From: a virus
Taxonomy: Duplodnaviria > Caudoviricetes
Strand: one strand, 5' to 3'
Length of the DNA: 58,329 bases
IMG/VR virus record: IMGVR_UViG_3300027833_000059
Span: 1 to 58,329 of that record
Positions 27,481-56,914 of this stretch are shown here, one piece after another (positions within the stretch are counted from its first letter, which is position 1; each line of letters begins with the position of its first letter). A program made the translations under genes and the position numbers. The notes under the pieces were generated by a model. The model worked only from the letters and a program-made list of their open reading frames with translations. It was not told the DNA's origin and searched no databases.

Positions 27481-28083
27481 TTATGCAGTTACAACTTCAT
27501 TTTTTTGTGGTTCAATTTTGATACCTTGAACACTTAAATTTTCATCGTTAGTAAGTTTAAATGTTTTATATTTCATTTGTTTAGATAACCTTTCAATTTT
27601 GTTTTTAAGTATCATATAAGGTGTTCTTTTGTCCTCTCCATACTCTCCAACTGAAACAACTTTTTTACTCATTAAAAGCCCCTTAAAATAAAGGTTAGTA
27701 TCTTTTGCGTTAAGTCCTTTAGCTATTGATACATAAGCATCGATTTGAGCTTGTGATTTAACCATTGTTTCGTCGCCTTGTTCTAATAACTTTGCTTTTA
27801 CTTCCTCGCTTGACGTTCTTTTAATAAGGCTTTTAACCAACTTGTTATATACTTTTTTAACTTCCTTTTTAGTTTCAGTTTTATATAGTTCTACTAATTT
27901 TCTTTTTACTGCTATTGATTTAAGAGAATTTAAGTCTTTTAATAGTCTTTTTTCATAGTTAAAACCTACTAATATAGATTGATTAGAAACTTCTCCTTGT
28001 GTATTAGTATAGTTCTTTATACCAATGATTGAAGCTCCTTTAATGTTTCTTGCTGCTACGATAGTTTTTACTGTGTTATTCAT
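27481..28083 (-). CDS. Cassette gene, hypothetical basic protein
   Basis: Own promoter at 28115. Confidence 0.8.
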   Translation of the reverse strand: MNNTVKTIVAARNIKGASIIGIKNYTNTQGEVSNQSILVGFNYEKRLLKDLNSLKSIAVKRKLVELYKTETKKEVKKVYNKLVKSLIKRTSSEEVKAKLLEQGDETMVKSQAQIDAYVSIAKGLNAKDTNLYFKGLLMSKKVVSVGEYGEDKRTPYMILKNKIERLSKQMKYKTFKLTNDENLSVQGIKIEPQKNEVVTA

Positions 28084-28461
28084 AATATAAGGTTTTTGTT
28101 GTTATTGTTCTCTACAAAGATACGACCTTTTATTGGATAAACAATAACTTATTCGATGAAATGCACAAATATTCGTTAAAGTGTATTATTAAAAATTAAT
28201 TGATAAAAAGTTTTGTAGAGTCGTTTATTTGTTGTAAATTTGTGTTGGTGCCTTAGAGTTAAATAAAATTTTGAGTTAATCCGTCATCGCAAGTTACGAC
28301 AATTTTTTTTAATATACAAATATAATTAGTTAAAATAATTATATTAAAAACTTTAACATAAAAAATTAGGATATTAAAATAAAAAGAAAGTGAAAGTTTT
28401 CCATTGTAGAACCGAAAAGATGTTGTATCTTTGTAGAGAACAATAACTAAAACCTTATAAT

Positions 28462-28806
28462 ATGTACGGAACATTCAACGGAGAAACAGCAGTAAAATTT
28501 AACGGAGTAACAACATTACCAGGATTAGCTAAGGCTACACTTAGGGTAGCAATGACTGAAGAAGGTTATGAGTTAACTAAGGATAGTACTAAGGCTTACC
28601 TTGAAGGTTGGGTTGAGACTATGATAGAGTGTGGAGATGGAGATGACACTGAATACACGATAGATGATGCCATAGACCAAGCGGCTAGTAATATTTGTTA
28701 TTCAAGAGATTTCTTTATTGACTTTAGGGATAACACTCAGATATCAAGTGCTGATAGAGAAGTAGTGTTTAATGAGATGATTAAGCTTCTAGAGATAGGA
28801 GCTTAA
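28462..28806 (+). CDS. Cassette gene in inverted orientation, hypothetical
   Basis: TATCTTTG at 28426 plus the standard leader; terminator hairpin at 28829-28856. Confidence 0.8.
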   Translation: MYGTFNGETAVKFNGVTTLPGLAKATLRVAMTEEGYELTKDSTKAYLEGWVETMIECGDGDDTEYTIDDAIDQAASNICYSRDFFIDFRDNTQISSADREVVFNEMIKLLEIGA

Positions 28807-28922
28807 TATTTCAAAGTTATTAATAGGATACACCTCAGCAATGGGGTGTTATTTTTGTTTGGTGTACACAAAAGTGTATAGAAATAAGTGTTAAATAATT
28901 TGTGTATGTTAATTTTTTATAT

Positions 28923-28986
28923 TATCTTTGTGATGGTGCCTTGGGGTTAGATTAATATTTCACACTAGGGCACCATCACAAATTTA
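28923..28986. promoter_or_regulatory. Convergent gene-less promoter pair forming an inverted repeat
   Basis: TATCTTTG-TGAT-GGTGCCTTGG ... CTAGGGCACC-ATCA-CAAATTTA. Confidence 0.7.
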
Positions 28987-29027
28987 CGACAATTAATTGG
29001 ATATACAAAATTTATATCCATTTATTT

Positions 29028-29171
29028 TCAATTGTTTTTATTTAGTTCTATTCTAGTATTTTGAAATATTCTTAACACGAAATAATATCTTTCAGTTTGT
29101 ATGTTTGAAGAGTTAACTAATTTTTCAGTTAATCTTTTTGCTTGTTCAAATTTTTCTCTAGTACTTTTCAT
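29028..29171 (-). CDS. Cassette gene, 47 aa (not in track)
   Basis: MKSTREKFEQAKRL...; promoter and leader at 29172-29203. Confidence 0.7.
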   Translation of the reverse strand: MKSTREKFEQAKRLTEKLVNSSNIQTERYYFVLRIFQNTRIELNKNN

Positions 29172-29254
29172 TTGTCTTGTGGTTTATGTTCTATACAAAG
29201 ATACGAATAATAACTGGATATCCAATGCGAATATCCAGTTAATTTTAATTATTT

Positions 29255-29428
29255 TTAGATTAACATCATATCCAGTAGTACTGATGGGTGACCATGTTCG
29301 CATACACCATCTGGTTCTACTTGACAACCTTCTGAGCAACATGCTGGTACTACTGATTCAAATACTACTTCATCTAAAGTAAGTCCTTCATTTTCTAATG
29401 CTTCATCTGCTGAAATTCTTTCACTCAT
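29255..29428 (-). CDS. Cassette gene, 57 aa Cys/His metal-binding protein (not in track)
   Basis: PACCSEGCQVEPDGVCEHGHPSVL; promoter at 29457. Confidence 0.8.
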   Translation of the reverse strand: MSERISADEALENEGLTLDEVVFESVVPACCSEGCQVEPDGVCEHGHPSVLLDMMLI

Positions 29429-29480
29429 AATATATGGTTTTAGTTATTGTTCTCTACAAAGATACGACTAATAAATGGTT

Positions 29481-29663
29481 CTACAAAGTAGAATGCCATT
29501 TATTTTTAACTTTAACACAAATAATAAATGCGTTATAACCTACTCTTTTACTAACTTTATCATAGTTGTTTCTAGTTGCATATTGTTTAGCACCTAATAA
29601 TGAATTAGAAACGTCTATATGTACTCCATCTTGATTTGTTACTCCGTAAACTGTTATTGGCAT
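29481..29663 (-). CDS. Cassette gene, hypothetical
   Basis: Own promoter and leader. Confidence 0.75.
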   Translation of the reverse strand: MPITVYGVTNQDGVHIDVSNSLLGAKQYATRNNYDKVSKRVGYNAFIICVKVKNKWHSTL

Positions 29664-29744
29664 GATAAGTGATTTTAGTTATTGTTCTCTACAAAGATAC
29701 GAATAATAAATGGATATCCAATACGAATATCCATTTATTATTAA

Positions 29745-33343: not shown

Positions 33344-33388
33344 TTTGCAAATATACTAATAAATATATCAAAATTCTACTTTAAACCA

Positions 33389-34910: not shown

Positions 34911-35046
34911 AATATCTTGTTTTAGTTATTGTTCTCTACAAAGATACAACTAATTTCTGGATTAACAATGGAATAATGTAAAAACTTTTTATAAAAATAA
35001 TTCATATTTTATTTGGTAGATATGAAGAAATGTTGTATCTTTACAC

Positions 35047-35109
35047 TGTAGGTGCGAAAGTGATACGGGTCTGGATAGAGATATTCGAAAGAGTAGACTC
35101 CAACCTACA
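35047..35109 (+). ncRNA. Structured small RNA, copy 1 of 4
   Basis: TTTG(35012)...TATCTTTA(35036) promoter; UGUAGGU/ACCUACA closing stem with inner stems conserved across the copies. Confidence 0.75.
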
Positions 35110-35166
35110 ACAAAGTCAAATAATTTACACTAAAAAATAAGGTACTAAATTAGTACCTTATCAATC

Positions 35167-35423: not shown

Positions 35424-36224
35424 TTATATGTTAATTATGAAGTCGTTAGTTTCAACATTTTCTTTATTAACACCCTTGGTTCCTTTACCCGTCATAAGCT
35501 TATATTTAAGTCCTACAATAACGTTTTGTTCATCTAAGAAACGTAAGTCTGTTTCATCTCCATTGATAACCTTAAAACCTTTGTATTCACTTGGTAATTC
35601 ACTTCGTTTACTCATTGCAAATACCATTGAAACGTTATAACCTTTATTTAACATTTCAAACGACGTTTTATCATTGTCTTCTGCTCTACTAAACGTCAAA
35701 TGATAATTACTAGGTAACTTTTTTCTTAATCTACTATCAATTTTAGTATAATCATAAAATTGTATACCTGGAAATAGTTCGAATATATTCTTATTATCTT
35801 TATCTTTGTATCTAATGTTCTCAAATGGAACATCACTAGTACCATTTAAACGAATAGCAAACTTTTTATATCTTAATACCTTACCATTTAAAGATAGTTG
35901 CTCTAAACCTTTAATTTTAGTATGAGTATTAACTATTTTAGTAATTTCATTATATAACTGTTCCATAAAACCTACCATATTATCTAAAAAATATTCAGTT
36001 TTATTTATTTTACCTTGTTGTACGTTATCAAAACGAGCCGCACCGCTATTGAATAGACAAGCCTTAGCACAACCTTTACTTGCCTTAGCACAAAGGTTAA
36101 CACCCTTAGAGTTTTGCTTATGTGGTGCTAAATACATAATGTAAGTAGTGTAACCTACTTTTTCACCCTTAATAGTTTTTGCATTGTTAGTACTTAATAA
36201 ATTCTTAGGAATTGTGTAGTTCAT
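35424..36224 (-). CDS. Cassette gene, GP88-family (radical-SAM-like Cys cluster) protein
   Basis: NLC.KAS.GC.KACL, IRLNGTSD, FYDYTK, NYHLTFS, GDETDLRFLD, IVGLKYK. Confidence 0.75.
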   Translation of the reverse strand: MNYTIPKNLLSTNNAKTIKGEKVGYTTYIMYLAPHKQNSKGVNLCAKASKGCAKACLFNSGAARFDNVQQGKINKTEYFLDNMVGFMEQLYNEITKIVNTHTKIKGLEQLSLNGKVLRYKKFAIRLNGTSDVPFENIRYKDKDNKNIFELFPGIQFYDYTKIDSRLRKKLPSNYHLTFSRAEDNDKTSFEMLNKGYNVSMVFAMSKRSELPSEYKGFKVINGDETDLRFLDEQNVIVGLKYKLMTGKGTKGVNKENVETNDFIINI

Positions 36225-36428: not shown

Positions 36429-37232
36429 TTAAACGAACAACTTAACTTTTTCTTTAATCTCTTCTACTGTATATTTATCAGTATTATATTTTTTATTTAA
36501 TCCTTTAACTCTTCTTTCAGCATTCTTTTTATTAGCATATTGTAAATAAGGTCTACTACTATACCTATAACCATTTCGTGTTCTCTTAACAAAATAATCA
36601 TAATCAACCTTTATTGTGTAATACTTATCTACTTCAATTAAATTCTTTACTTTTGGTACTCTTGGAAAGTATCTTTTTCTAATCCATTTTGGACTATCTT
36701 TTAACATACCTCTAAATTCTATTGTAGGATATACATTAGTATCTTTAAATATCTCGTTACATTCAGCTACATACCTTAATAACTCTTCTTTATTTGTAAC
36801 TCTTTCACTTACATAATTACTAACAATAGTTCTATTATATGTATTAGTTACTACAATACTTACTCCAACTTCATTTAACTGCTCAATAGTTAAGGCTTTT
36901 TTAATACCAGTTTTAAATATACCCTTAAACATACCAAAAGTTGTATTATGTGTTCCCTTACCTCCAATAGCTATTGCACTAAAAAAACCAAAAGACTTAT
37001 CATTATACTCAGTATAACGTTTTTTATAACTATCTCTTATATTATCAGCGTAAGATAATAATTCATTTTCACTATATAATATTTGAGTAGTATCTCCAAC
37101 ACTTAATTTTGACCAATCTCTTACTCTTGCACCACTGTACTCGAATAAGTTACTTGACCCTATTATTACCATTGGTATAAACTTGTCTTCTACTTTAATA
37201 AATTGTTTATCGTAAATTAAATCGTAACTCAT
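36429..37232 (-). CDS. Cassette gene, hypothetical
   Basis: 267 aa; own promoter and terminator. Confidence 0.8.
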   Translation of the reverse strand: MSYDLIYDKQFIKVEDKFIPMVIIGSSNLFEYSGARVRDWSKLSVGDTTQILYSENELLSYADNIRDSYKKRYTEYNDKSFGFFSAIAIGGKGTHNTTFGMFKGIFKTGIKKALTIEQLNEVGVSIVVTNTYNRTIVSNYVSERVTNKEELLRYVAECNEIFKDTNVYPTIEFRGMLKDSPKWIRKRYFPRVPKVKNLIEVDKYYTIKVDYDYFVKRTRNGYRYSSRPYLQYANKKNAERRVKGLNKKYNTDKYTVEEIKEKVKLFV

Positions 37233-37446
37233 AATAAAAGGTTTTAGTTATTGTTCTCTACAAAGATACAACCAATTTCTGGATTAACAATGGGAATTCT
37301 TAATTATTTTCTTATTTATAATGATTCTAAACGTTAACACTAAGGCACCATGACAAATTTACAACAAATAAATGAGAATACAAAATAAAATGGACCCTTT
37401 TTTTATATTAGGACCCATTTTCAACTTAACCACAAGTTATATTTTA

Positions 37447-37725
37447 TTAATGGTAGCTAAAACCAACTTCTGTTATATAAAATTTACCACCATTATCCCT
37501 CAAGTAATAAAGGTCTAAATCGAATTTTACTAATTCATTCTCAACTGATGTTATCAATTGGTCATCTAAGTTAGGTAACTCATCTTTAACACACTCTTCT
37601 CTCTCATAGTCAGAAACTTTAACCTTACAACCGAATAGTTGTGATAGTTTTGTATTTAGGTCATGAGTAGTAAATCTACTACCTACTAATGATTCTGTTT
37701 TATTTGTGATGTCTTGATTTGTCAT
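37447..37725 (-). CDS. Cassette gene, hypothetical
   Basis: Own promoter. Confidence 0.75.
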   Translation of the reverse strand: MTNQDITNKTESLVGSRFTTHDLNTKLSQLFGCKVKVSDYEREECVKDELPNLDDQLITSVENELVKFDLDLYYLRDNGGKFYITEVGFSYH

Positions 37726-38103: not shown

Positions 38104-38122
38104 TTGTCTTGTGGTTTATGTT

Positions 38123-41434: not shown

Positions 41435-41480
41435 AATAAAAGAGTTTTAAAGTTCGACACTTCAAAGATACAACCTTTTT

Positions 41481-41672
41481 TTAGTTATCACAAGTTTTAT
41501 TTAAAATATCTTTAATATTTAATGGTAATACATCCTTTAATTCTGGCTTAACAAACTCAACTAATGCATCTTTAGGATGATAACTTAATATATCATTAAC
41601 TTGGTTATCTATTGTGGGTGAACTATCATTTAATAGATATCTCTTACCCTCTACCTTAAGAATAGTTAACAT
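41481..41672 (-). CDS. Hypothetical protein
   Basis: Overlaps the upstream gene. Confidence 0.6.
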   Translation of the reverse strand: MLTILKVEGKRYLLNDSSPTIDNQVNDILSYHPKDALVEFVKPELKDVLPLNIKDILNKTCDN

Positions 41673-41856
41673 CTACTTCATGTCTATGGATTAATAAAAC
41701 TTCTTTTGAAGAATCACAAATAACTGCTTGAAAATTCTCACACTTTATGTGTTCACATATAATATATGTACCAGTCACATTTCCACTAGAAACCAATTCA
41801 TCTTCTTCATTACAATGAGTAAAAATTTCTGCATTTTCTAATTCAATAGTTTTCAT
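41656..41856 (-). CDS. Cassette gene, hypothetical
   Basis: Start moved to ATG 41856, after a TATCTTTA promoter. Confidence 0.7.
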   Translation of the reverse strand: MKTIELENAEIFTHCNEEDELVSSGNVTGTYIICEHIKCENFQAVICDSSKEVLLIHRHEVDVNYS

Positions 41857-41884
41857 AATAACTTTTTTATGTAAAGATACAATA

Positions 41885-42894: not shown

Positions 42895-43254
42895 TTATTC
42901 TTCATCATCGTCTCTATTTTCGGTACAATTATCACATAATTTAACATCAGTTTCATATCTCCAAGGTATTATCTGCTCTTTAGGGAAGAATTCTAAACAA
43001 TCGTGACATTCTATGTTACCTATTGGTGGAACATTCATATCTGCCACCTCACAAGCTAAATTATATTCATTAGGGTTAGCTAATTGAACTGCACCTATAA
43101 ATTCAGAATCCCATTTATAACTATGCTTAATTAACTTAAATGCCTCTTTAATATCACTAAGTTTACTATCTGTCACAAATGCATATGGTGGAACTGTATT
43201 CACATATGTCATTAAGGTAAGGTCTATCAATTTTAATGCTTCATCTTTAGTCAT
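42895..43254 (-). CDS. Cassette gene with C-terminal zinc finger
   Basis: CHDC...CDNC. Confidence 0.75.
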   Translation of the reverse strand: MTKDEALKLIDLTLMTYVNTVPPYAFVTDSKLSDIKEAFKLIKHSYKWDSEFIGAVQLANPNEYNLACEVADMNVPPIGNIECHDCLEFFPKEQIIPWRYETDVKLCDNCTENRDDDEE

Positions 43255-43380
43255 AATATTTTGTTTTAATTTTTGTTCTCTTCAAAGATACAACTAATTA
43301 TTGGTTCTACCAAATAAAAACAAAAAAAAGAGTTAGGTCTGCAAACCTAACTCAATCACACATTTAGACAAAACAAAAAC

Positions 43381-45596: not shown

Positions 45597-45678
45597 AATA
45601 AATGGTTTTAGTTATTGTTCCCTACAAAGATACAACTAATAAATGGATATCCAATAAGAATATCCATTTATTTTTAAT

Positions 45679-46657: not shown

Positions 46658-46780
46658 AATCTTGTGGTTTTAATTATTGTTCTCTACAAAGATACAACTA
46701 ATTATTGGTTCTACCAAATAATAAACAAAAAAAAAGGTGCAACTTTGAGATGTGCACCCTTTTTTAAACTTAACCACAAG

Positions 46781-47146
46781 CTATAACCCTAATTTCTGTA
46801 ACCTTTCTTGTAACAATGGTTTTTCTTCATCACCTATACTATCCCAATAGCACATCAATTCATCATAACCATTTTTATATTTTTCAAGTTCGGCCTTTAA
46901 TCTCTCAATTTCAGTCCAATTTTCTTCATAACCAACCTCAATGTCTTCATCACTTTTAAGACCCTCAATATATCTTACATAAATCCCTTTACCTCCAACA
47001 TAGTCAATCAATTCTTGTATTTGTTTTACATCACTTTCAGCTTCCCAATCAATACCAAATAATTCAGTTGCTTCAGTTCCTAATTTATTACTATCTACAA
47101 AATCGTAAGTAGACATATATCTACCAAATGAAATACTTTTACTCAT
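46781..47146 (-). CDS. Cassette gene, hypothetical
   Basis: Own promoter and terminator. Confidence 0.75.
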   Translation of the reverse strand: MSKSISFGRYMSTYDFVDSNKLGTEATELFGIDWEAESDVKQIQELIDYVGGKGIYVRYIEGLKSDEDIEVGYEENWTEIERLKAELEKYKNGYDELMCYWDSIGDEEKPLLQERLQKLGL

Positions 47147-47236
47147 AATACTAATAGTTTTAATTATTGTTCTCTACAAAGATAATAAAAATAAACCTTA
47201 CCACCAAATATAATAAGGTTTATTTTAAATTAATTA

Positions 47237-47614
47237 TTAATTGAACTCTATAACCTTAGTAGAACCATTATCACGTACAAATAAAGACCTAACTTCTGGT
47301 TCTATAGTATATTCACACCCTATGTAGAAATCTACACTTAAATCGTCTGAAAATAAGTCTGTAACTAATAAGTCTTGTTTATAATCAGAACAAATCTCTT
47401 CATCAACTTTAAATGTAACCTCAACTGACATATTAAAGCTATCATAATCACTATTGAAACTATCTGTTACGAATTTTCTACCTCTACACTCTAACTCTAA
47501 TAAACCCATATCAAAGTTCATATCAATAACATTAGTGAAATTAGGTAACTTTAATTCAACTGAAAGTATATTAGCATCAGTAACATTCATTACTTGACTT
47601 ATTAAATCTTGCAT
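47237..47614 (-). CDS. Cassette gene, hypothetical acidic protein
   Basis: Own promoter and leader. Confidence 0.75.
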   Translation of the reverse strand: MQDLISQVMNVTDANILSVELKLPNFTNVIDMNFDMGLLELECRGRKFVTDSFNSDYDSFNMSVEVTFKVDEEICSDYKQDLLVTDLFSDDLSVDFYIGCEYTIEPEVRSLFVRDNGSTKVIEFN

Positions 47615-47690
47615 AATTTTGTGGTTTTAATTATTACTTATACAAAGATACATAATTAAAACCACACCACCAAATAATAAACAAACTTTC

Positions 47691-47978
47691 TTATAATGGA
47701 TATAACATTATAGTACCACCATCATACCATTCGAAAAACCAACCACGTTTTTTTACAAAGTTATTTAATTGATTGATAACACCATTACTATATGCTTTCC
47801 TGTCAACATAATATTTGAATATTAAATTACCTCTAGTATCAGTAGTCCCATCCTCAGCAGACATCCAAAGGCCATTCTCACACTCTTGTGAAAACTCTTC
47901 ACTGGCCCTAATATGTTGTTTTGGATATTTACCCTTAATTGCTTCAAGCATCTGCTCTCTAGTATAAATCTTTGACAT
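47691..47978 (-). CDS. Cassette gene, hypothetical
   Basis: GLW.SAE...F.YY...GV...GWF.EWYDGGT motif. Confidence 0.8.
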   Translation of the reverse strand: MSKIYTREQMLEAIKGKYPKQHIRASEEFSQECENGLWMSAEDGTTDTRGNLIFKYYVDRKAYSNGVINQLNNFVKKRGWFFEWYDGGTIMLYPL

Positions 47979-48051
47979 CTTAATTGTGGTTTATGTTCCT
48001 TACAAAGATACAACAAATAAACCTTACTACCAAATGGTAATGGATATATTT

Positions 48052-48228
48052 TTAATATAATAATTTGATTTTTTTTAAATCAATAATTATCGTTTCAACG
48101 GTTTTACGTCTTTCTTCAGCTAAAGCAGCCCCAATAAAATCACCTTGCTTTTGACATTCATTACTAGTAACCCCAGTCACTAAATCTGATTTTTCTAATA
48201 AATCAATATAAACTTCTAAATTATTCAT
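48052..48228 (-). CDS. Hypothetical 58 aa protein (not in track)
   Basis: MNNLEVYIDLLEKSDL...; truncated CCACAAG leader. Confidence 0.65.
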   Translation of the reverse strand: MNNLEVYIDLLEKSDLVTGVTSNECQKQGDFIGAALAEERRKTVETIIIDLKKIKLLY

Positions 48229-48240
48229 AACCTTGTGGTT

Positions 48241-48468
48241 TTAATTATTAATATACAGCGTATTCGATAAAAACCTTTCTACAATAATAATCATTAATAT
48301 TTTTTCGATTCTATTAATCCTATCACCAATCGTGTAAGTATCTTTACCACCACTAACATATTCTTTTATTATAGTGTTTTTAATATCTTGGTAATGTTCT
48401 ACCTCAAAAAATTGTTTTATTTCATCAGAACTTAAATTGATTAAATCTTCTTTTTTTATTTTAGTCAT
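48241..48468 (-). CDS. Cassette gene, hypothetical
   Basis: Own promoter and leader. Confidence 0.7.
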   Translation of the reverse strand: MTKIKKEDLINLSSDEIKQFFEVEHYQDIKNTIIKEYVSGGKDTYTIGDRINRIEKILMIIIVERFLSNTLYINN

Positions 48469-48541
48469 ATCAATTGTGTTTTATGTTCTATACAAAGATA
48501 CAAAAAATTCCCTTACCAACCTAATGATAAGGGAATTATTT

Positions 48542-49240
48542 TTAATTAATTTTATCCTCAATAGTATCTAAATACGTTATTGTATTATTCACTATTATAT
48601 ATGGTCGCCTATCCATTTCATCATCATACCATATAGTAGCAGTACCTATTTCACGACTATAAAAGTTAACATTTAATTTATGGTTAACCATATCAACTTC
48701 ATTATACCATAAACCTTTCTCTAATTTGCAAGATATATTATATAAACCATTCACAGAAATCATAGAATCGTTATAAACATAACAAGTTTCTCCATCAATA
48801 AACTTTACATAATTTCCACTTTCATCATTACATACTGAATATTCAGTTGATAACATTTCACCAGTATTTTCATCACCATAAGCTTCATCATCAGCTAATA
48901 ATAACTTACCACTAACACTACATTTACATATAGATTCATAATCATGTAAATCATCATTACTTAAATCATCTACCTCTAAAGCTACGCAAATCTCCTTATA
49001 TCTCTCAATGAATAACTTTAAATCATCAAAAGCCATTACACTAATACTAACACTTAAGTCTTTTTTTCTTATATCCCAGGAAAATGTACCAAACTCTCTC
49101 TCGAATTGGTTTTTCATATATTGGATACTTATTTTATTAATGTTTGGAAACGCATTAATAACATCTTCTACGAATACACATAGTATGTTATCTACATCGT
49201 AAAAGGTTCTCATCATTGGGTACTTAAAATTCTGTTCCAT
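48542..49240 (-). CDS. Cassette gene, hypothetical
   Basis: 232 aa; own promoter. Confidence 0.75.
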   Translation of the reverse strand: MEQNFKYPMMRTFYDVDNILCVFVEDVINAFPNINKISIQYMKNQFEREFGTFSWDIRKKDLSVSISVMAFDDLKLFIERYKEICVALEVDDLSNDDLHDYESICKCSVSGKLLLADDEAYGDENTGEMLSTEYSVCNDESGNYVKFIDGETCYVYNDSMISVNGLYNISCKLEKGLWYNEVDMVNHKLNVNFYSREIGTATIWYDDEMDRRPYIIVNNTITYLDTIEDKIN

Positions 49241-49336
49241 ATCTATATTAATTATTGTTCAATACAAATATACAAAATAAAAACTAACCCACCAAATAAA
49301 TGATGAGTTAATTTTATATTAGAACAAATTTACCAC

Positions 49337-49651
49337 TTACATATTAGTTAACTCTTTATATGTAATACTAGTAATTAATTTATAAAACTCTGGTAACTTA
49401 AAGAATACAAGTACACCATTAACAATAATACTACAATGAGCATCAGACCCATATTGACCTACCCTATTTAACTTATTAAGCCTAGATACACCTTCATTAG
49501 CTAATTGAATAAAAAAGTTATTAGACTTAACCCTAGCCTTCATCCCGTCAGCTTGTACCTCAATAGTATAATCCCCACCAAAAGCATCGCCTTCATTCAT
49601 CCTTCTATGCTTATATGCTTTAATGTTTTCAAATGTTATTGTATTTCCCAT
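49337..49651 (-). CDS. Cassette gene, hypothetical
   Basis: Own promoter and leader. Confidence 0.75.
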   Translation of the reverse strand: MGNTITFENIKAYKHRRMNEGDAFGGDYTIEVQADGMKARVKSNNFFIQLANEGVSRLNKLNRVGQYGSDAHCSIIVNGVLVFFKLPEFYKLITSITYKELTNM

Positions 49652-49708
49652 GTCTCATTGTTTTTATTGTTCCTTACAAAGATACAAAAAATAATCCTTA
49701 CTACCAAA

Positions 49709-50026
49709 TTATAGCAAGGTTTTTTTATCATTATTAGTGAGTTTTACACCTCTGTATCTTTCTATGATTCTCATGGCTTGTTCAAAGTCCCCATTTAAAA
49801 CCTCTTGACACATATGGTCAATGGCTATCGCATCACAATATACAGTTTCATATGATAATGTTTCATCATTATATGCTTTATATGTTGGTGTTTCTGCATC
49901 GGAATGAGAACCATTATACACATCTTCTACATCAAACCAATCAACTTCCTTATCAAATGGTATATTCTTAACTCCCCTAGCAACTAACTCTAACCAATCT
50001 TGTATCTCTTGTCTTACACTTTTCAT
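49709..50026 (-). CDS. Cassette gene, hypothetical
   Basis: Own promoter and leader. Confidence 0.75.
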   Translation of the reverse strand: MKSVRQEIQDWLELVARGVKNIPFDKEVDWFDVEDVYNGSHSDAETPTYKAYNDETLSYETVYCDAIAIDHMCQEVLNGDFEQAMRIIERYRGVKLTNNDKKTLL

Positions 50027-50114
50027 AATCTTGTGGTTTTAATTATTGTTCCTTACAAAGATACAATAAATAATCCTTACTACCTAATATAATAAGGATT
50101 ATTTTATAATTTAT

Positions 50115-50375
50115 TTAAAACATTTCATATCTCTCTAAGATAACTCTCCCTTTGTATTTCCCCTCTTCTCCGACGTAATCTACAAACTTAAGTAGTGTAT
50201 CATCATTTCTAACGTAAGCATCTTGAGATACCACATCTTTGGCTCTGTTAATCTCTAAGATTTGATTAAGTTCAAACTCAGCTGACTTCTTACTTGAAAA
50301 GTGTCTTGGTGTAAACGCATACTGATTTGTGAAACCATTTAAACTACCACTCTTAACTACATAAACATATCTCAT
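50115..50375 (-). CDS. Cassette gene, hypothetical
   Basis: Own promoter and leader. Confidence 0.75.
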   Translation of the reverse strand: MRYVYVVKSGSLNGFTNQYAFTPRHFSSKKSAEFELNQILEINRAKDVVSQDAYVRNDDTLLKFVDYVGEEGKYKGRVILERYEMF

Positions 50376-50464
50376 AACTATAAGGTTTTAAAATTAGACT
50401 TACACAAAGATAAACAAAATAAACCTTACTACCAAATATAATAAGGTTTATTTATAAATTTATT

Positions 50465-51010
50465 TTATGCGTCTTTATAAAGTCTCCAAGTTAATGATTC
50501 AATATCTAAGGTATCACAAGCAATTTCAATATTACTCATATGAGTCTTAATTTTACGTTCCCATGTATCTTGGTGCTTATTTGCCATTAACAATAAGACC
50601 TCATTAACTTCATCCATTATTAATTTAAATCTTCTATTAAAAGAATCCCCATTAAAATCAACATAAGATACAAAAGGCATACCAACTTTGTTACATAATT
50701 GTTTTAACATTTGTTCTGACATACCAACTTCATCTAATATATGTTCCATATATTCTCCATCAACCTCAATATCTTTTAATATATTAATGACTTTTCTAAC
50801 CTTTGTCCCATAGTCTGAACTAATTATTTCATGTAAGCCAACTGAATGTACATTTAAATCCTTATCTACTACCTTAACATACTTAGTTGGTGTATCATTG
50901 TTAGGTGTAGTTTCCTCAAAAAACTCTACAATAATAACCTCATCATTAGAAGTTAAATTTAAATCTGCCAATGCATCTCCCTTTAATTTTACTCTATCGT
51001 ATTTTTTCAT
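50465..51010 (-). CDS. Cassette gene, hypothetical
   Basis: Own promoter and leader. Confidence 0.75.
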   Translation of the reverse strand: MKKYDRVKLKGDALADLNLTSNDEVIIVEFFEETTPNNDTPTKYVKVVDKDLNVHSVGLHEIISSDYGTKVRKVINILKDIEVDGEYMEHILDEVGMSEQMLKQLCNKVGMPFVSYVDFNGDSFNRRFKLIMDEVNEVLLLMANKHQDTWERKIKTHMSNIEIACDTLDIESLTWRLYKDA

Positions 51011-51091
51011 CTTACCTGTGGTTTATGTTCCCTACAAAGATACAACAAATAATCCTTACTACCAAATATAATAAGGATTATTTTTAATTTA

Positions 51092-51697
51092 TTATACTTG
51101 TGCTAACATTCTATTATAAAACTTTTCTTTAGACGTGTATAAAAAACAATTTCTAATCTTTTCTCCACGATACGTTGAATGAATTGTACTATGTTCATCA
51201 ACTTTTATTACCTCAAGTCTTTTTTGTTGAACCATATAATTTCTAAAGATATAACGTTCTCCATATTTAATTTCTTTTTTAGGTTGAGTTCTACTAATGA
51301 AATCTTCACGATTTTTGTAAATTGTATATCCCAACATTGAACCACTATTACCAATCACATAAGAATAAGATGTCCAACCAACACCTATTGTAAATTTTAT
51401 TTTATCAATTTTACCTCGTTTTAATATAAAATTCTTATATGGGTTATCATTATGATATAAAACATCTTTTCCAATGTTATACTTATTATCTAAAATCTTG
51501 GTAATATCGTTACTAACAAACTTTTTCTTAATATCTTCTAAGTTATTACTACGCGAATAATCGTTTATCCCAAACCTAAGTCTTTCAATTGTTCCATCAG
51601 CTAACAGAGTACCCTCAATAGAAGTTATCGAACCTTGAGTTCTGTTATACTTTAACATTATTCTATCTCCTATATTGAATGGTAATGTAATTTTCAT
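51092..51697 (-). CDS. Cassette gene with repeated SH3/KOW-like beta modules
   Basis: FNIGDRI, YNIGKDV, IKYGERY repeats. Confidence 0.7.
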   Translation of the reverse strand: MKITLPFNIGDRIMLKYNRTQGSITSIEGTLLADGTIERLRFGINDYSRSNNLEDIKKKFVSNDITKILDNKYNIGKDVLYHNDNPYKNFILKRGKIDKIKFTIGVGWTSYSYVIGNSGSMLGYTIYKNREDFISRTQPKKEIKYGERYIFRNYMVQQKRLEVIKVDEHSTIHSTYRGEKIRNCFLYTSKEKFYNRMLAQV

Positions 51698-51812
51698 AAT
51701 CTTGTGGTTTTAATTATTGTTCCTTACAAAGATACAACTAATTATTGGTTCTACCAAATATTTTAATAGAAAAAGGGTACCACTTTGAGATGGGTACCCT
51801 TTTCAGCTCAAG

Positions 51813-52337
51813 CTATATTAATCTATTCTCTCCCTCAATCCAACGTCTGAATGCTATAATAACATCTCCATCAGACCAATTATCTTTATCAGCACATTCT
51901 AAAATGTCCTCAAAACAATATTGTACAATATCTGCTATATTGTTTGGTATATCCATACCAAGATAAGTTATTTTTTGTATGAGTATTTTTTTAACCTCAT
52001 CTTTTTTATTAAAATTTTCAAATTCCTCCCACTCTTCATCTTGAACATCAATATAGAACACCTTATAAGTGTCAAAACCATGTAACGAAACACTTTCTAA
52101 TCCGTTAACAAAAGAATTAAATTCTTCTTTAGTTTGGAACGTGTGGGATTCTAATGAATCATATATGTTATCTCGATTATCTGAAGAACCATCTTGTAAG
52201 TCATCTAATAATTCAGAAACTTTATTTAACTTATAAACGTTATTTTTAACAATATACTTTGTCCAAGAGATTTTACTCTTAAAAGATTCAATCGCTCCGT
52301 AATCATTTCCTTTAGTGTCAATAATAATATATATCAT
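51813..52337 (-). CDS. Cassette gene; C-terminal domain shared with 44493-44981
   Basis: Start moved to ATG 52337. Confidence 0.8.
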   Translation of the reverse strand: MIYIIIDTKGNDYGAIESFKSKISWTKYIVKNNVYKLNKVSELLDDLQDGSSDNRDNIYDSLESHTFQTKEEFNSFVNGLESVSLHGFDTYKVFYIDVQDEEWEEFENFNKKDEVKKILIQKITYLGMDIPNNIADIVQYCFEDILECADKDNWSDGDVIIAFRRWIEGENRLI

Positions 52338-52421
52338 AATATCTTGTGGTTTAATAATTAATATTTCAAAGATAATAAAAATAATCCTTACTACCAAATA
52401 TAATAAGGATTATTTTATATA

Positions 52422-52664
52422 TTACCATTCTACAATAATATATTCTGTACCATGACTATTGAAACCAAAAGTTATTTTATAACCCTTTTCTCGCAATAAA
52501 CGTATTGCCAAATCTTTTTCTTGAGGGCTACAAGTAACACCACTACAGTAGTGGGTAATTCTACCACTCTTACTTTTAATAATTTTATCACATACCCTAT
52601 GATAAAATTCTCTTGATACTTCTATCTTACTCTTTGCGTGTTCTTTAGCTGATGGCATCTCCAT
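52422..52664 (-). CDS. Cassette gene, hypothetical
   Basis: Own promoter and leader. Confidence 0.75.
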   Translation of the reverse strand: MEMPSAKEHAKSKIEVSREFYHRVCDKIIKSKSGRITHYCSGVTCSPQEKDLAIRLLREKGYKITFGFNSHGTEYIIVEW

Positions 52665-52754
52665 AATATTATTGTTTTAATTGTTCTACACTTCAAAGAT
52701 ACAAAAAATAAACCTTACTACCTAACATAATAAGGTTTATTTTATAATACTGTT

Positions 52755-52991
52755 TTATTTAATCTCAATTAATTCATCAAATTTACTATAATACTCACTA
52801 ACTAAATCTTCATTACATAAATTACTAAAACCACTTATACCACCATCACGAATAATAGTATCTATGTAACTATAATCCCCACCTAATATCATTTGCTCAA
52901 TTGTATCAATCTCATCAGAAACTAATCTATCTATAACTTCTTGTCTTGTTAAATCTTCCATATCTAACACTTTTTTAATTATCCTACTCAC
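52755..52991 (-). CDS. Hypothetical protein
   Basis: Second gene of the cassette. Confidence 0.65.
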   Translation of the reverse strand: MSRIIKKVLDMEDLTRQEVIDRLVSDEIDTIEQMILGGDYSYIDTIIRDGGISGFSNLCNEDLVSEYYSKFDELIEIK

Positions 52992-53160
52992 TTACTATTA
53001 ATCTTACTTCTCCATCCAATTCGTAACCACTCTGACCTTTACTTGATACTTCAATATTATTAACCCAAAGGTTTACTTCATCATCCCCAATTGGAACTCT
53101 AACATTTACACTCTTATCTTCAATTTTTTGAAGAGCATCTATTAAATCTTGTACACTCAT
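52984..53160 (-). CDS. Cassette gene, hypothetical
   Basis: Start moved to ATG 53160 (MSVQDLIDALQ). Confidence 0.7.
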   Translation of the reverse strand: MSVQDLIDALQKIEDKSVNVRVPIGDDEVNLWVNNIEVSSKGQSGYELDGEVRLIVSE

Positions 53161-53247
53161 AATATATTGTTTTAATTGTTCTACATTACAAAGATACAAA
53201 AAATAATCCTTACTACCTAACATAATAAGGATTATTTTATATATTTC

Positions 53248-53481
53248 CTACTCACCAGAACAACCTAAACATAAATCAGTATCATCATCATAACTAATAA
53301 TCTCACCAGAACTAAAACCACCACCACAATTATTACACATATAACCATCATCCAAACTTTCACACTCTTCAATCAAATCACACCTATCAACTAATAAGGC
53401 TTGGTCTATATCTTCATATACTGAATTATCTACCAAATAATCTGCTAACTCAAACTTATTCCAACTACTAAAATCTTTCAT
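53248..53481 (-). CDS. Acidic zinc-finger protein
   Basis: CNNCGG...CLGC. Confidence 0.7.
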   Translation of the reverse strand: MKDFSSWNKFELADYLVDNSVYEDIDQALLVDRCDLIEECESLDDGYMCNNCGGGFSSGEIISYDDDTDLCLGCSGE

Positions 53482-53494
53482 ATATAATACTTTT

Positions 53495-53803
53495 TTAATT
53501 ATCTAACCAACCTAATAAATTAACTGCCTCACCATACTCCAATTCCGAAAGTGAACCACTTATAATTTCACCATTACAACCCTCAGTTATACCAATAGCA
53601 ATATAATCACCACCCTTAATACTCATAACAGCATACTCGTCATAATGAAAATGCTTACACACCTTACTTACTCTTGGTACTTCATTCCTAACCTCAGAAT
53701 CAAAATCGTCAAATTCATCTTGTGTTAAAATAACCTCATCATAACTATTTAAAGCTTGATAAACTGAATCCATTAAATTGTGTACTTCTTTTGTTAAACT
53801 CAT
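53495..53803 (-). CDS. Cassette gene, hypothetical acidic protein
   Basis: Own promoter. Confidence 0.75.
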   Translation of the reverse strand: MSLTKEVHNLMDSVYQALNSYDEVILTQDEFDDFDSEVRNEVPRVSKVCKHFHYDEYAVMSIKGGDYIAIGITEGCNGEIISGSLSELEYGEAVNLLGWLDN

Positions 53804-53934
53804 AATATATCGTTTTAATTATTATACTTCAAAGATACAACATAAGAAAAGTTCCCACAACTACTTATAGTATGCAAAACAACTTTTTTAATTATCCAAA
53901 TTATTTATGTTAAAATTTTTAACCACGCATTTTA

Positions 53935-54132
53935 TTATAATCCATAATTATATACAAGAAAATCAAATATTTTCTCATCATCCCCAAATAGATTAGATTC
54001 AGGTAAATAATATTGCTTACCTCCATACTCGATACATTTATGGTCATCCATCATTAATTCAACATAATCACAGGATTCATTTTTTCTTACTTTTGTTCCT
54101 CTCTCTGTTAAAAATTCTTTAATTGTCTTCAT
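53935..54132 (-). CDS. Cassette gene, hypothetical
   Basis: Own promoter and leader. Confidence 0.7.
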   Translation of the reverse strand: MKTIKEFLTERGTKVRKNESCDYVELMMDDHKCIEYGGKQYYLPESNLFGDDEKIFDFLVYNYGL

Positions 54133-54277
54133 AATAAATTATTTAATTGTTCTACATTACAAAGATAATTAAACTTATTTAATAATCGTGCAGACTATAA
54201 GTAACACCAGTAAAAATATATTTTAAAATAATTTATATTTTATTTGGTAGAACCAATATAATGTCGTACCTTTACAC

Positions 54278-54340
54278 TGTAGGTACGAAAGTGATACGGG
54301 TCTGGAAATAACACTCCGAAAGAGTAGACTCCAACCTACA
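54278..54340 (+). ncRNA. Structured small RNA, copy 2 of 4
   Basis: TTTG...TACCTTTA promoter; same scaffold; followed by a U-run. Confidence 0.75.
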
Positions 54341-54426
54341 CCTATTTTTTTTACATACAAAACAAAAAAAAGAGCTAGGTAAAAACCTAACTCAATTTTG
54401 AACACAAACAAAACAACTATTATATT

Positions 54427-54997
54427 TTAAAACTCAATATTAATTTTTCTACTCTCAATGTTTTCAACTAAAACACTTTGCAAATAATCAACATCTGTTG
54501 GATTACCAACAAAATCAACATATCCTACCAAACTTTTTCTTAATCTCTTCTAAGATAACATTCCTATCTCCCTCTTTTAAATCTCCCAATAAATCTAATA
54601 TCATATCATTAGCATTTGAAACATTTAAATCCCTTAAACCACTATCATCACTATCAGCATATGACCAACCTTTAAGCCTATCCTCTAATTCCTTAGAACA
54701 TTCAGCCATAAAATACAAATCAAAACAAGTAGTATCAGTCGCTTCATCCCAACCTATCTCTTCAAAACCATTAGTCTTAACCAATGTCCTAAGATATAAT
54801 GAATTGTCAGAAAACATAATATTATCAACAATTTCAGTTATTAAACCATAAGCACCCACAGAACCATTTTGGTCTAACCAACCACCATACTTAAATCTAA
54901 TTATACTATAACTTTCACTTGTTACGGCTGAAATGATAAAGTCCTTATCCTCTCTTGCTTTTACCCTTAACGTTGTTTTTAATTGTTCTAATCTCAT
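54427..54997 (-). CDS. Cassette gene with an apparent +1 frameshift near 54530
   Basis: Frame stops at 54515, but the +1 frame continues VGYVDFVGNPTDVDYLQSVLVENIESRKINIEF to 54427. Confidence 0.6.
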
Positions 54998-55060
54998 CTT
55001 ACTTGTGGTTTTAATTATTGTTCTTAGCAAAGATAATACAAATTATTGAATCTACCAAAT

Positions 55061-55279
55061 TTATTTAAGTAATTCTGAAATATTATATATATCATCTACT
55101 TCCCATGATATATTATCATGCTCACATGTTATCGTCTTTAATTGATAATTTCTACCACCCCTAATAGCATCAGCAGTTAATAAAATAAACGCTTGTATAC
55201 CACCATTACAATTAACAGTTAGTGTATGTTCATATCCACGAACATCCCTAAATAAACCTATGTATGTATTTGTTCTCAT
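55061..55279 (-). CDS. Cassette gene, hypothetical
   Basis: Own promoter and leader. Confidence 0.75.
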   Translation of the reverse strand: MRTNTYIGLFRDVRGYEHTLTVNCNGGIQAFILLTADAIRGGRNYQLKTITCEHDNISWEVDDIYNISELLK

Positions 55280-55332
55280 CTTACTTGTGGTTTTAATTAT
55301 TGTTCCTTACAAAGATACAACATAATATTGGA

Positions 55333-55662
55333 TTAAACTAATTTTTTCTCTAAAAATTCATTAATTTCATCAAAAAATTCTCCATCCCATTGTCTACCCT
55401 CATTCATTAATTGAAACTCATTCGTAAGTTCCTCAGCTAATTCATATAAACCACCAGTACCTTGACTCTCATACCTATCCAATACCAAAGGCGACTCACA
55501 CTTATCTTGTCTCCAATAATATGTTATCTGAGACACAACCTCAAAATAAGTCTCAACCCAACCATTAAAACATATTTCAGTCGGTAAAGAATTATCACTG
55601 TTCTTTAATGCAAATTCTAAATTCTTAATTTGCTCATTACTACCTTGGAATAATATTTTCAT
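55333..55662 (-). CDS. Cassette gene, hypothetical
   Basis: Own promoter and leader. Confidence 0.75.
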   Translation of the reverse strand: MKILFQGSNEQIKNLEFALKNSDNSLPTEICFNGWVETYFEVVSQITYYWRQDKCESPLVLDRYESQGTGGLYELAEELTNEFQLMNEGRQWDGEFFDEINEFLEKKLV

Positions 55663-55758
55663 CTTACTTGTGGTTTTAATTATTATTATACTTCAAAGAT
55701 ACAAAAAATAATCCTTACTACCTAATATAATAAGGATTATTTTATAAAATTGTCTACA

Positions 55759-55995
55759 TTAAAAGTAAACTTCGTAACCCTCTACTTTCATTTGAATAAT
55801 ACATCGCTTGACATAGTTTATAGCCTCTTCTGTAACTATATAACCTCTAACACCTTCCTCAAGTTGGTAAGTAATTACGAAATCCTCATCAACTCCCTTA
55901 CCTACTTTATTACCCTCAACTTTAGAATAAAATTCTAATCTACCTTTAATATTTTCTATTGCTCTTGGTGCGAAATAATCTATTGGATAAGACAT
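55759..55995 (-). CDS. Cassette gene, hypothetical
   Basis: Own promoter and leader. Confidence 0.75.
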   Translation of the reverse strand: MSYPIDYFAPRAIENIKGRLEFYSKVEGNKVGKGVDEDFVITYQLEEGVRGYIVTEEAINYVKRCIIQMKVEGYEVYF

Positions 55996-56130
55996 AATTT
56001 GTGGTTTTTATTGTTCCTTACAAAGATACAACAAATAATCCTTACTACCAAATAATATACAATAAAAAAATAAATTAAAAATAATCCATTTATTCCATTG
56101 TAGAACCAATAATTATTCGTATCTTTACAC

Positions 56131-56195
56131 TGTAGGTGCTTAATAGCGATACGGGTCTGGAACTAACACTCCGAAAGAGTAGACTCCAACCTACA
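56131..56195 (+). ncRNA. Structured small RNA, copy 3 of 4
   Basis: TATCTTTA promoter at 56120; same scaffold with a variant first hairpin. Confidence 0.75.
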
Positions 56196-56314
56196 ACAAA
56201 TCCAGATTAAAATCTCAAACCAAAGCACCAACACAAAGATACAAAAAAGTTTTTAATAAAAAAAATAAATAAGACCCTAATTTTAATTAAAGCCTTATTT
56301 ATTTTATCTAATCC

Positions 56315-56779
56315 CTACCCTAATACAAATTGCTTTGCCTTAGCATAAACACCTAACTCTTCCCTAACTTTTGAATCTTTCCTAAAATACTCGTCATAAT
56401 ATCTAACCTTATTAAAATAATTAATATCATACACACCTAATTCACTCATCTTCTCACATACTTCATAACTTAAGAAAAATTGTATGGACTCAACCCTCTG
56501 TAATGGACTTGAACTTAACATACTACCATAAATGTCATCACTGAATAATGTACAACCATTATCATCAACTAATAACCTACCTACACTATAATCTAAACCA
56601 TAATTCATCTTAGGGTCTCTATCTACCTTAAAATACCTTACATCAACATAACCTAAACCATTCTTAATAATCCTACTACTACCATCCATAGTACCAAAAT
56701 GCTCGTATACACCCGATAATAACTCCTTAGCTAATTCAACACTAATCTCATTCGCTACTAATTCCTTTACTAATTTCAT
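56315..56779 (-). CDS. Cassette gene, hypothetical
   Basis: Own promoter at 56803. Confidence 0.75.
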   Translation of the reverse strand: MKLVKELVANEISVELAKELLSGVYEHFGTMDGSSRIIKNGLGYVDVRYFKVDRDPKMNYGLDYSVGRLLVDDNGCTLFSDDIYGSMLSSSPLQRVESIQFFLSYEVCEKMSELGVYDINYFNKVRYYDEYFRKDSKVREELGVYAKAKQFVLG

Positions 56780-56914
56780 AATATATGTGGTTTTTGTTCT
56801 CTACAAAGATACAACTAATTATTGGATAAACAATAACTTTTATACAAAAAAAAAATAATTTAATTTTTCTCACATATTATTTGGTATATCCAATATAATG
56901 TTGTACCTTTACAT

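Follow-up and report, generated by a model that had tools for sequence, protein, structure and literature searches.

Composite promoter units in a cassette array of a distant T4-like jumbo phage probably infecting marine Bacteroidota

The IMG/VR virus record IMGVR_UViG_3300027833_000059, which was analyzed over its entire length of 58,329 bases (the window), carries on its minus strand an array of small genes, most of which are preceded by a repeated regulatory unit of about 85 nucleotides (nt). The explanation that we favor, and consider fairly likely, is that this region is an array of expression cassettes resembling the promoter/stem-loop (PeSL) cassettes of T4-like phages, that it belongs to a T4-like jumbo phage infecting marine Bacteroidota, and that cassettes are exchanged within the repeated units. 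Each small gene would be a self-contained expression cassette bounded by such units. The loss, insertion, and rearrangement of cassettes can be observed directly in natural populations, whereas the recombination mechanism is deduced from the junctions that these events left behind.

The completeness of the record is estimated by CheckV at 18%, so that the full genome would measure roughly 300 kb, and its G+C content is ~28%. Its terminase matches 2,841 phage records, mostly from T4-like phages and all at less than 60% identity; the nearest isolates, at ~30% identity (31% at most), are a Microcystis phage, the Flavobacterium phage 'immuto', and cyanophages. There are 61 loci in IMG/VR with a terminase 50-76% identical to that of the window, and the long relatives G001 (158 kb), G002 (353 kb), G004 (85 kb), and G005 (110 kb) were compared whole. 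G002 has direct terminal repeats and is 100% complete. The Gp23 capsid family of T4 was recovered from G001, G002, and a further relative, G003, at ~205 bits (cellular controls 0 of 14), and an RNA polymerase beta domain was found in none of five records, one of them a complete genome. These features point to a distant T4-like jumbo-phage lineage that would have to use the RNA polymerase core of its host. A megablast search with positions 1-12 kb found no relative at the DNA level among isolated phages.

A conserved backbone occupies the other end of the window and is syntenic in G001, G002, and G004, with amino acid identities of 41-79%. By comparison, homologues of the 69 array genes number only 10 in G001, three in G002, and seven in G005, in partly scrambled order, and none in G004, where the contig possibly does not reach this part of the genome. 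The array corresponds to the hyperplastic (HYPERPLASTIC) region of the phage. Coordinates are collected in Table 1.

Composition of the repeated units

The repetition of the unit is far beyond chance. The pattern TTWGG-N19-TATCTTTG, allowing one mismatch, was matched 44 times where 0.35 matches are expected, and none of 100 shuffled sequences reached 44. Most of these matches (39) are on the minus strand, all within 29,938-56,052, as are 31 of the 32 exact matches; similarly, 39 of 43 early-like promoter matches lie on the minus strand, 37 of these at 30-58 kb. When a unit is recognized by a TAT[AC]TTT[GA] box ending no more than 35 nt before the ATG, 56 of the 69 minus-strand open reading frames (ORFs) of at least 39 amino acids (aa) between 27,481 and 56,779 have a unit of their own, and the commonest distances from box to ATG are 28 nt, in 17 ORFs, and 24 nt, in 12. 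The other 13 lack a box and use the unit of a neighbor; three of these (48052-48228, 42432-42659, and 38823-39011) retain a leader-like sequence but no box. Units with an ORF of at least 30 aa downstream number 57. An initial annotation had described roughly 60 one-gene cassettes with five leader types, and the repeat and all five leader types are indeed present, but the count is nearer to 57 and 13 ORFs share a unit.

Alignment on the -7 box gives the consensus A-TT(T/A)GG-TAG ... TTG-TATCTTTG-(T)A-NN-G/A-AAC-AA. The primary-sigma promoter of Flavobacterium johnsoniae, as described in PMC6847099, has TTTG at -33 and TANNTTTG at -7, refined to TAHHTTTG, with G at -5, which places +1 on the fifth base after the box. 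This base is G in 81% and A in 19% of the units, in agreement with the N4-G spacing noted initially. Judged by sequence, all the features of the Bacteroidota sigma-A (sigma-ABfr) class are present, namely TTTG at -33, TAHHTTTG at -7, and G at -5, and the earlier assignment of a Bacteroidota-type promoter therefore holds. The E. coli-type sigma-70 consensus is not enriched (126 found versus 142.6 expected). In the proposed arrangement, the invariant (G)TTGTATCTTTG would act as the -7 element and transcription would start at the purine 5 nt beyond it.

The leaders have an equally distinctive composition. In Bacteroidota, whose translation does not depend on a Shine-Dalgarno (SD) sequence, A is favored at -3, -6, -12, and -13, and these bases are positive determinants of translation (PMC6847099). 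Across the 57 leaders, A occurs in 77% at -3, 58% at -6, and 93% at both -12 and -13, while G is held to 0-4% from -19 to -6 against a background of 18%. A leader of ~20-24 nt that lacks G and is rich in A, notably at -13, -12, and -3, would serve as an SD-less translation-initiation region of the Bacteroidota kind. On this reading, the unit would couple a Bacteroidota primary-sigma promoter with a translation-initiation region, both of them close to ideal.

The initial annotation overlooked a hairpin built around the -33 box. An inverted repeat with a stem of at least 8 bp is present in 27 of the 57 units, compared with 1.1 in shuffled sequences (maximum 4), and in 26 units the -33 box lies inside the hairpin loop, so that the spacer of the promoter is made up of the 3' arm and a T-run. 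In only one unit is the hairpin wholly upstream of the promoter. Three families of hairpin units can be distinguished by their arms and loop, type A (AAAATAATCCTTATTA, taTTWGG, TAGTAAGGATTATTTT), type A2 (TTCCCTTATCA, TTWGGT, TGGTAAGGGAA), and type C (AATAAATGGATATTC, ktATT, GGATATCCATTTATT), while the hairpin-less type B reads TTTGGTAGAACCAATAATTAGTTG. Hairpin units have predicted folding energies of -14 to -19 kcal/mol, as opposed to about -1 to -7 kcal/mol in the others. An independent terminator scan of 37-57 kb found 19 terminator-like sites, compared with 3.3 +/- 1.6 in shuffled sequences; 18 are on the minus (coding) strand, and 11 coincide with unit hairpins according to a reading of the list. 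In about half of the units, then, an A-tract, a hairpin, and a T-run follow one another, and the hairpin most likely terminates the transcript of the upstream gene and insulates each cassette. The overlap of hairpin and -33 box is typical of the phage in the window: the box lies in a loop in 26 of 57 units there, compared with 6 of 56 in G005, 3 of 78 in G002, and 0 of 22 in G001.

The cargo is as diverse as was first described. Among the 69 proteins (median 92 aa, range 39-290 aa) there is one paralogous pair, encoded at 44493-44981 and 51813-52337, with 56% identity over 62 aa. Two proteins pass Pfam cut-offs, a SprT-like protein (45057-45596) and a GP88 protein (35424-36224), and no Pfam family exceeds its cut-off for the remaining 67. 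Ten proteins match PHROG families, each of no known function, and PADLOC assigned none of the 69 to a defense system. The proposed role in host takeover or anti-defense thus gains no homology support from Pfam, PHROG, or PADLOC. By analogy with T4, the cargo genes are most likely accessory genes that would be expressed early and serve adaptation to the host. Strongly acidic proteins account for 24 of the 69. A 267-aa cargo protein has no usable Atlas match and gave a poor structure model, the SprT-like protein found nothing when used as a metagenome-scan query, and a search for tandem repeats returned nothing relevant.

Gain, loss, and exchange of cassettes

Near-identical DNA is present in marine metagenome runs from seven studies. 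Contigs from four of these runs (X5, X6, X7, and X19), each from a different study and assembled at k=31, were compared with the window over 37,001-57,000. The clearest difference is a 409-nt cassette of two ORFs that is present in X5 and X6 and absent from X7 and X19, whose contigs join position 41463 to 41873 with flanking sides of 255 and 173 nt and an overlap of 10 nt. The overlap is TTGTATCTTT, the -7 core of two units. The shorter variant carries a hybrid promoter and lacks two small ORFs. Because 10 nt is far below k=31, this junction is not an assembly artifact.

More distant variants came from a metagenome scan with the type-A pattern, which returned nine stretches representing eight loci (L187-L194) in five contigs, mosaics with 67-96% identity to the window. 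Chaining of these loci yielded 17 junctions; since L188 overlaps with L189, the number of unique ones is 16. The 409-nt cassette is present in L188 and absent from L194, where the 41473/41873 junction recurs, and L194 also lacks a one-gene cassette whose absence corresponds to an overlap between two type-B units. Three insertions (in L187, L190, and L194) each consist of a complete unit with its ORF and are bordered by duplicated unit sequence; the extra cassettes of L187 and L190 differ from each other but sit at the same hot-spot unit. Segments of L188 follow the order 33.8-34.7 kb, a small RNA, 50.06-50.47, 40.27-40.51, 39.96-40.19, and 41.43-42.8 kb, which shows cassettes that have been transposed and swapped. 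Between the window and G001, a single gene block is 92.2% identical in DNA within unrelated flanks, beginning in the leader and ending ~9 codons before the stop codon, where the hairpin unit begins. The terminase of G001, by contrast, has 75% protein identity to that of the window. The block looks like a recent single-gene transfer, with strong purifying selection as a less likely but conceivable alternative.

Most other joints in the X-run contigs were set aside, as their sides of 20-67 nt map within or beside repeated units. The joints from 37293 to 54225 and from 40516 to 37300 were likewise rejected as cross-mapping of paralogous units, since the letters between their sides match the window at ~34.97 and 36.26 kb, slightly beyond the region compared. 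Backward joints, which could represent circles or duplications, also have short sides (30-67 nt) that map in or beside repeated units, and they come from the k=31 contigs.

Homologous exchange within units, often in the -7 core, would account for cassettes being deleted, inserted, swapped, and replaced, and such exchange would keep expression intact because every cassette carries the same unit. The two halves of the unit, the upstream part with hairpin and -33 box and the downstream leader, are found in almost every combination, with no statistical dependence between them (P=0.62, n=28). Repeated crossovers in the invariant core would be expected to produce this pattern. Homology-driven exchange is also compatible with a weak, sub-threshold RecA/UvsX-like ORF detected in G002 and G003. 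The suggestion that units serve as points of cassette gain, loss, and shuffling is borne out by junctions with overlaps inside units, flanking duplications, and alternative cargo; gene order is not shared with breakpoints away from the repeats, and instead the opposite is seen. In G001, the nearest long relative, only 10 of the 69 genes recur.

The units might nevertheless be purely regulatory, their similarity reflecting selection for one strong promoter and leader while breakpoints within genes are purged by selection. Several observations weigh on this side or against our preferred explanation. Although 27 of 34 breakpoint ends (25 of 32 unique ends) fall in unit intervals, which make up 18.1% of the array (P=2.6e-13 for the unique ends under a uniform null), units also fill 65% of the intergenic space, and against an intergenic-only null the 25 of 32 ends in units (P=0.078) and the 13 of 32 ends in the -7 core (P=0.063) are not significant. 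Selection for intact genes could explain this placement, and an expression role is plausible for each conserved position. Three junctions have at least one end off the units, and the indels are presence or absence differences that are not polarized as gain or loss. Furthermore, 30 of the 57 units have no hairpin, unit types are not significantly clustered along the array (P=0.13 and 0.06), and promoter, start site, terminator, and timing are all predicted from sequence. Because the placement statistic fails against the intergenic-only null, the argument for exchange within units rests on overlap junctions and flanking duplications. Junctions inside units overlap by 8-59 nt, among them the 10-nt overlap that is exactly the -7 core; insertions are bordered by duplicated unit sequence, and different cargo is found at one unit site. 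Such products would be expected from exchange within the repeats, and exchange at PeSLs has been demonstrated experimentally in T4-like phages, as reported in PMC2839356. A purely regulatory role seems rather unlikely.

An integron-like platform, in which a dedicated site- or structure-specific recombinase acts on the hairpins as it would on folded attC-like sites, is very improbable. Arrays of unrelated single-gene cassettes, imperfect inverted repeats at their boundaries (hairpins in 26 of the 57 units), and alternative cargo at one site do recall integrons, and a gene for an HNH/endonuclease VII-like protein lies a few kb from the array, with only a conjectural link to exchange. However, the absence of an integrase from the window, noted initially, extends further: no tyrosine recombinase (PF00589) was found in five records comprising the window, which is 18% of its genome, the complete 353-kb relative, and three other fragments (controls 14 of 14), and no serine recombinase was found in the same five records (controls positive). 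The best-resolved junctions are in -7 boxes or in hairpin-less type-B units and not in hairpins. Integron cassettes are promoterless and depend on a common promoter, unlike the 56 of 69 ORFs here that have their own unit, and the earlier comparison with integrons is a loose analogy.

Reading of the promoters and small RNAs

The promoters of the array are of the primary-sigma (sigma-A) class, at least by prediction, and would be transcribed by host RNA polymerase with host sigma-A, possibly with a sigma-A-like factor from the phage. We put the chance that host sigma-A reads the array early in infection at slightly better than even; the 'immediate-early' label derives from promoter type. The chief complication is that relatives of the phage encode sigma factors. 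ORFs with a Sigma70_r2 domain are found in G002 (three), G001 (two), G005 (one), and weakly in G003. One class, of 282-298 aa, consists of full-length RpoD/RpoS-like proteins that are 41-45% identical to their nearest cellular-scale homologues, short Bacteroidota-type primary sigma factors of ~287 aa, one of which is named from a Bacteroidota metagenome-assembled genome; primary sigma factors of Bacteroidetes lack region 1.1 according to PMC6847099. The second class (~247 aa) is weakly sigma-like and located in the conserved core. Region 2 is nearly invariant between phage and cellular proteins and region 4.2 is similar, but after WWIR in region 2.4 the cellular QSIL is consistently replaced by RYIL, SYIQ, or RCIM in the phage proteins. 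A phage sigma factor could thus read the units, alone or alongside host sigma-A.

It is possible, though on balance doubtful, that the phage-encoded sigma-A-like factor is the main reader, in which case the array would be delayed-early or middle and written in a private dialect (extended TTWGG / GTTGTATCTTTG). The altered region 2.4 means that host sigma-A need not be the reader and makes early timing uncertain, which counts against this part of our proposal. In addition, units conserve more positions than the host consensus needs, and box variants are genome-specific, with TATCTTTG in the window and G005 and TATATTTG in G001 and G002. Yet both variants fit the host consensus TAHHTTTG, the window (18% of the genome) has no sigma gene, nothing ties the phage sigma to the array promoters, and some promoter read by the host would be required to express that sigma first. 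A bolder idea goes further and is improbable in our estimation: a phage sigma-A paralog would read the private dialect with the -33 box presented in a hairpin, making each cassette a portable module that can be expressed and exchanged only within the clade, with a ~70-nt RNA, which is also present in the arrays of relatives, regulating or taking part in the process. If this were true, it would constitute a cassette-exchange and expression platform private to the phage, along with a new small-RNA family.

Relatives share the architecture of the array and have a dialect of their own. In G001 and G002, TATATTTG is preceded at 19 nt by TTTGG and followed by a leader with AACAATTAAAAC in it, and in G002 the early-like promoters peak at 260-320 kb, adjoining the structural block. 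G005 has 37 exact matches to the pattern of the window, and a search with the extended type-B pattern gave eight matches, all of them in G005. Elsewhere in IMG/VR, neither the exact 29-nt string of box and leader nor the type-A hairpin pattern was found in other contigs; a degenerate box and leader pattern matched 74 loci, but only four contigs had at least three matches.

The backbone of the window bears a different motif in place of the array unit. ATATTTATTA occurs 10 times versus 3.0 expected, nine times within 1-24.3 kb and once in the array, and in many backbone genes it lies near the start codon, often that of a structural gene. Late promoters in T4 consist of a single box. ATATTTATTA is a candidate late-promoter box, and as such would support a temporal separation of backbone and array without proving it.

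The second feature missed initially is a conserved non-coding element of ~70 nt, present in four copies in gaps of the array on the plus strand and thus antisense to it. Each copy has its own predicted plus-strand promoter, TTTGG...TA(T/C)CTTTA, and a hairpin lies downstream of copy 1. The core, invariant in ACGGGTC...GAAAGAGTAGACTCC, is predicted to form a three-way structure with compensatory changes in two hairpins. In an alignment that was fitted to the model, 92.9% of cells are paired, compared with 80.1% in shuffles (0 of 500 as high) and 25-45% when the structure is slid along. No Rfam family reached its gathering score in the window, and the small-RNA region gave noise only. With homologues in other loci (Table 1), the element is a candidate for a new phage small-RNA family. 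A further plus-strand promoter match with one mismatch, in a 550-nt gap of the array, is directly followed by a GC-rich hairpin and may produce another small transcript.

Other features of the lineage are of less immediate relevance. There are no tRNA genes in the window; the 10-mers GGTTCGAATC (25 times) and GGTTCGATTC (16 times), which are tRNA-like, occur at 100-250 kb of G002 and suggest a large set of tRNA genes. Membership in the bS21-phage clades described in PMC9723584 was considered and is not shown, as no bS21 gene, nor any other Pfam family, was found among the small plus-strand ORFs adjoining the structural genes.

Table 1. Positions of array, backbone, and small-RNA features in the window, and of related features in other records
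Feature	Position	Strand	Details
Array (hyperplastic region)	27481..56850	-	69 small ORFs, 57 composite regulatory units, 78% coding
Type-A unit, example	50027..50104	-	hairpin 50068-50104; TTAGG (-33) 50083-50087 in loop; T-rich tail; -7 box TATCTTTG 50056-50063; leader 50027-50055; ATG at 50026
Type-A2 unit, example	48469..48537	-	arms TTCCCTTATCA / TGGTAAGGGAA around TTAGGT; -7 box 48493-48500
Type-C unit, example	45597..45672	-	arms AATAAATGGATATTC / GGATATCCATTTATT; ATTGG in loop and 3' arm; -7 box 45625-45632; ahead of SprT-like gene (predicted driver)
Type-B unit, example, no hairpin	46658..46718	-	TTTGGTAGAACCAATAATTAGTTGTATCTTTG; same extended sequence eight times in G005
Gene block shared with G001	49737..50044	-	92.2% DNA identity, flanks unrelated
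409-nt two-ORF cassette	41464..41872	-	both breakpoints in -7 boxes, common TTGTATCTTT
One-gene cassette (119 aa)	42895..43279	-	absent from L194; 36-nt overlap between two type-B units
Insertion hot-spot unit	47142..47208	-	upstream of gene 46781-47146; different extra cassettes in L187 (78 aa) and L190 (87 aa)
Unit with extra cassette in L194	40149..40214	-	91-aa ORF near 40175; duplicated unit sequence at flanks
Off-unit junction ends	35121; 40274		3' end of small RNA; 3' end of gene, 44 nt from unit
Off-unit indel	47584-47605		5' part of gene 47237-47614; 167-nt insertion in L190; 20 to 68 nt in X7, X19
Small RNA, copy 1	35012..35160	+	predicted promoter 35012-35043; structured core 35045-35114; hairpin 35140-35160
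Small RNA, copy 2	54243..54345	+	core 54276-54345
Small RNA, copy 3	56094..56200	+	core 56129-56200
Small RNA, copy 4	56880..56987	+	core 56913-56987
Small-RNA homologues	L150:17684-17752, L150:16334-16374, L177:18749-18812, L177:17302-17368	-
Small-RNA homologue, weak	L148:16257-16313	-
Small-RNA homologue, weak	L152:2138-2199	+
Plus-strand promoter match	28899-28930	+	hairpin GATGGTGCC...GGGCACCATC directly after, to ~28975
Conserved backbone	1..27081		prohead protease, portal, T4-like large terminase, ThyA, thioredoxin, Clp-type ATPase (840 aa), RNase H-like proteins, HNH/EndoVII-like protein
HNH/endonuclease VII-like gene	24303-24920	+	backbone, few kb from array
ATATTTATTA sites	753-762, 1514-1523, 3213-3222, 11895-11904, 16506-16515, 17072-17081, 19343-19352, 20255-20264, 24281-24290		backbone
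ATATTTATTA site	33357-33366		array
Sigma-70-family ORFs, G002	257031-257927, 119310-120158
Sigma-70-family ORF, G002	7444-8184	-
Sigma-70-family ORF, G001	783-1664
Sigma-70-family ORF, G001	93767-94516	-
Sigma-70-family ORF, G005	57577-58434

Comparison with known systems

PeSLs have been described in the T4-like phages RB49/phi1, T4/PST, and KVP40/nt-1 (Arbiol et al. 2010, PMC2839356; Comeau et al. 2014, PMC4122927). Their components are an AT-rich stretch, a sigma-70-like early promoter with a stem-loop immediately before it, an SD sequence, and the ATG. According to these accounts, they act as promoters and terminators, sit at indels between close relatives, and give rise to mini-circles when crossovers fall in the interval from the -10 element to the ATG (PMC2839356; PMC4122927). 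The precedent suggested in the initial annotation is a good one with regard to composition, location, and association with indels. In both systems, composite terminator-promoter-translation-start units (here predicted) separate small ORFan genes in the hyperplastic regions of T4-like genomes, with a genome-specific consensus; all of the elements, whose activities are predicted from sequence, occur together in 26-27 of the 57 array units, and the other 30 have no hairpin. Indels, replacements, and displacements between close relatives are located at units, which here hold 25 of the 32 unique ends, a proportion that is not significant against the intergenic-only null, and crossovers fall between the -10 element (-7 in the array) and the ATG.

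The two systems also differ in important ways. The grammar of the array is the Bacteroidota -33/-7 pair (TTWGG / TATCTTTG), whereas PeSLs have sigma-70 -35 and -10 elements, and its A-rich, Kozak-like leader has no SD sequence. The stem-loop encloses the -33 box, while that of a PeSL is placed just upstream of the promoter, according to the legend of Figure 3 in PMC4122927. The density of units is much higher (57 in 29 kb), and the phage is remote from isolates (terminase at most 31% identical). Finally, promoter, terminator, and mini-circle activities are documented for PeSLs, whereas the array is known from sequence alone. The array promoter appears to be the host-phylum equivalent of the PeSL promoter, drawn from a different sequence family.

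Other comparisons are less close. The early region of T4 contains many small non-essential genes expressed from strong host-type sigma-70 promoters. The array shares the small genes and host-type promoters, and the phage may also share a separate late class with a single A/T-rich box, for which ATATTTATTA is the candidate. It differs in that early timing is a prediction and that the clade carries primary-like sigma factors, which T4 itself is not known to encode. The host-takeover module of SPO1 resembles the array in that small early genes are clustered and each carries strong signals for transcription and translation, but its repeats are not known to play a role in recombination. The two are not homologous, and their hosts belong to different phyla.

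Comparable arrays do not appear in the literature that was searched. Among the matches listed, PeSL-phage articles concern, by title, phages of Proteobacteria, a cyanophage, haloarchaeal viruses, and a review of jumbo phages, with none on phages of Bacteroidota, and articles matching TAnnTTTG and phage give no description of such arrays. In the article on ~300 kb Bacteroidetes bS21 phages (PMC9723584), the words 'promoter' and 'early' are absent.

The array is a variant of the PeSL kind that is new in its phage lineage and in its host phylum. The same evolutionary device would have been recreated with promoters and translation signals that belong to a different phylum, and variants from natural populations of an uncultivated marine lineage of ~300 kb genomes catch the exchange at base-pair resolution. 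The units may offer compact and, by prediction, insulated expression modules for Bacteroidota genetics, and the map of ~70 accessory genes could be used in screens for host-takeover or counter-defense functions. These findings also raise the question of what role is played by a primary-like sigma factor carried by a phage.

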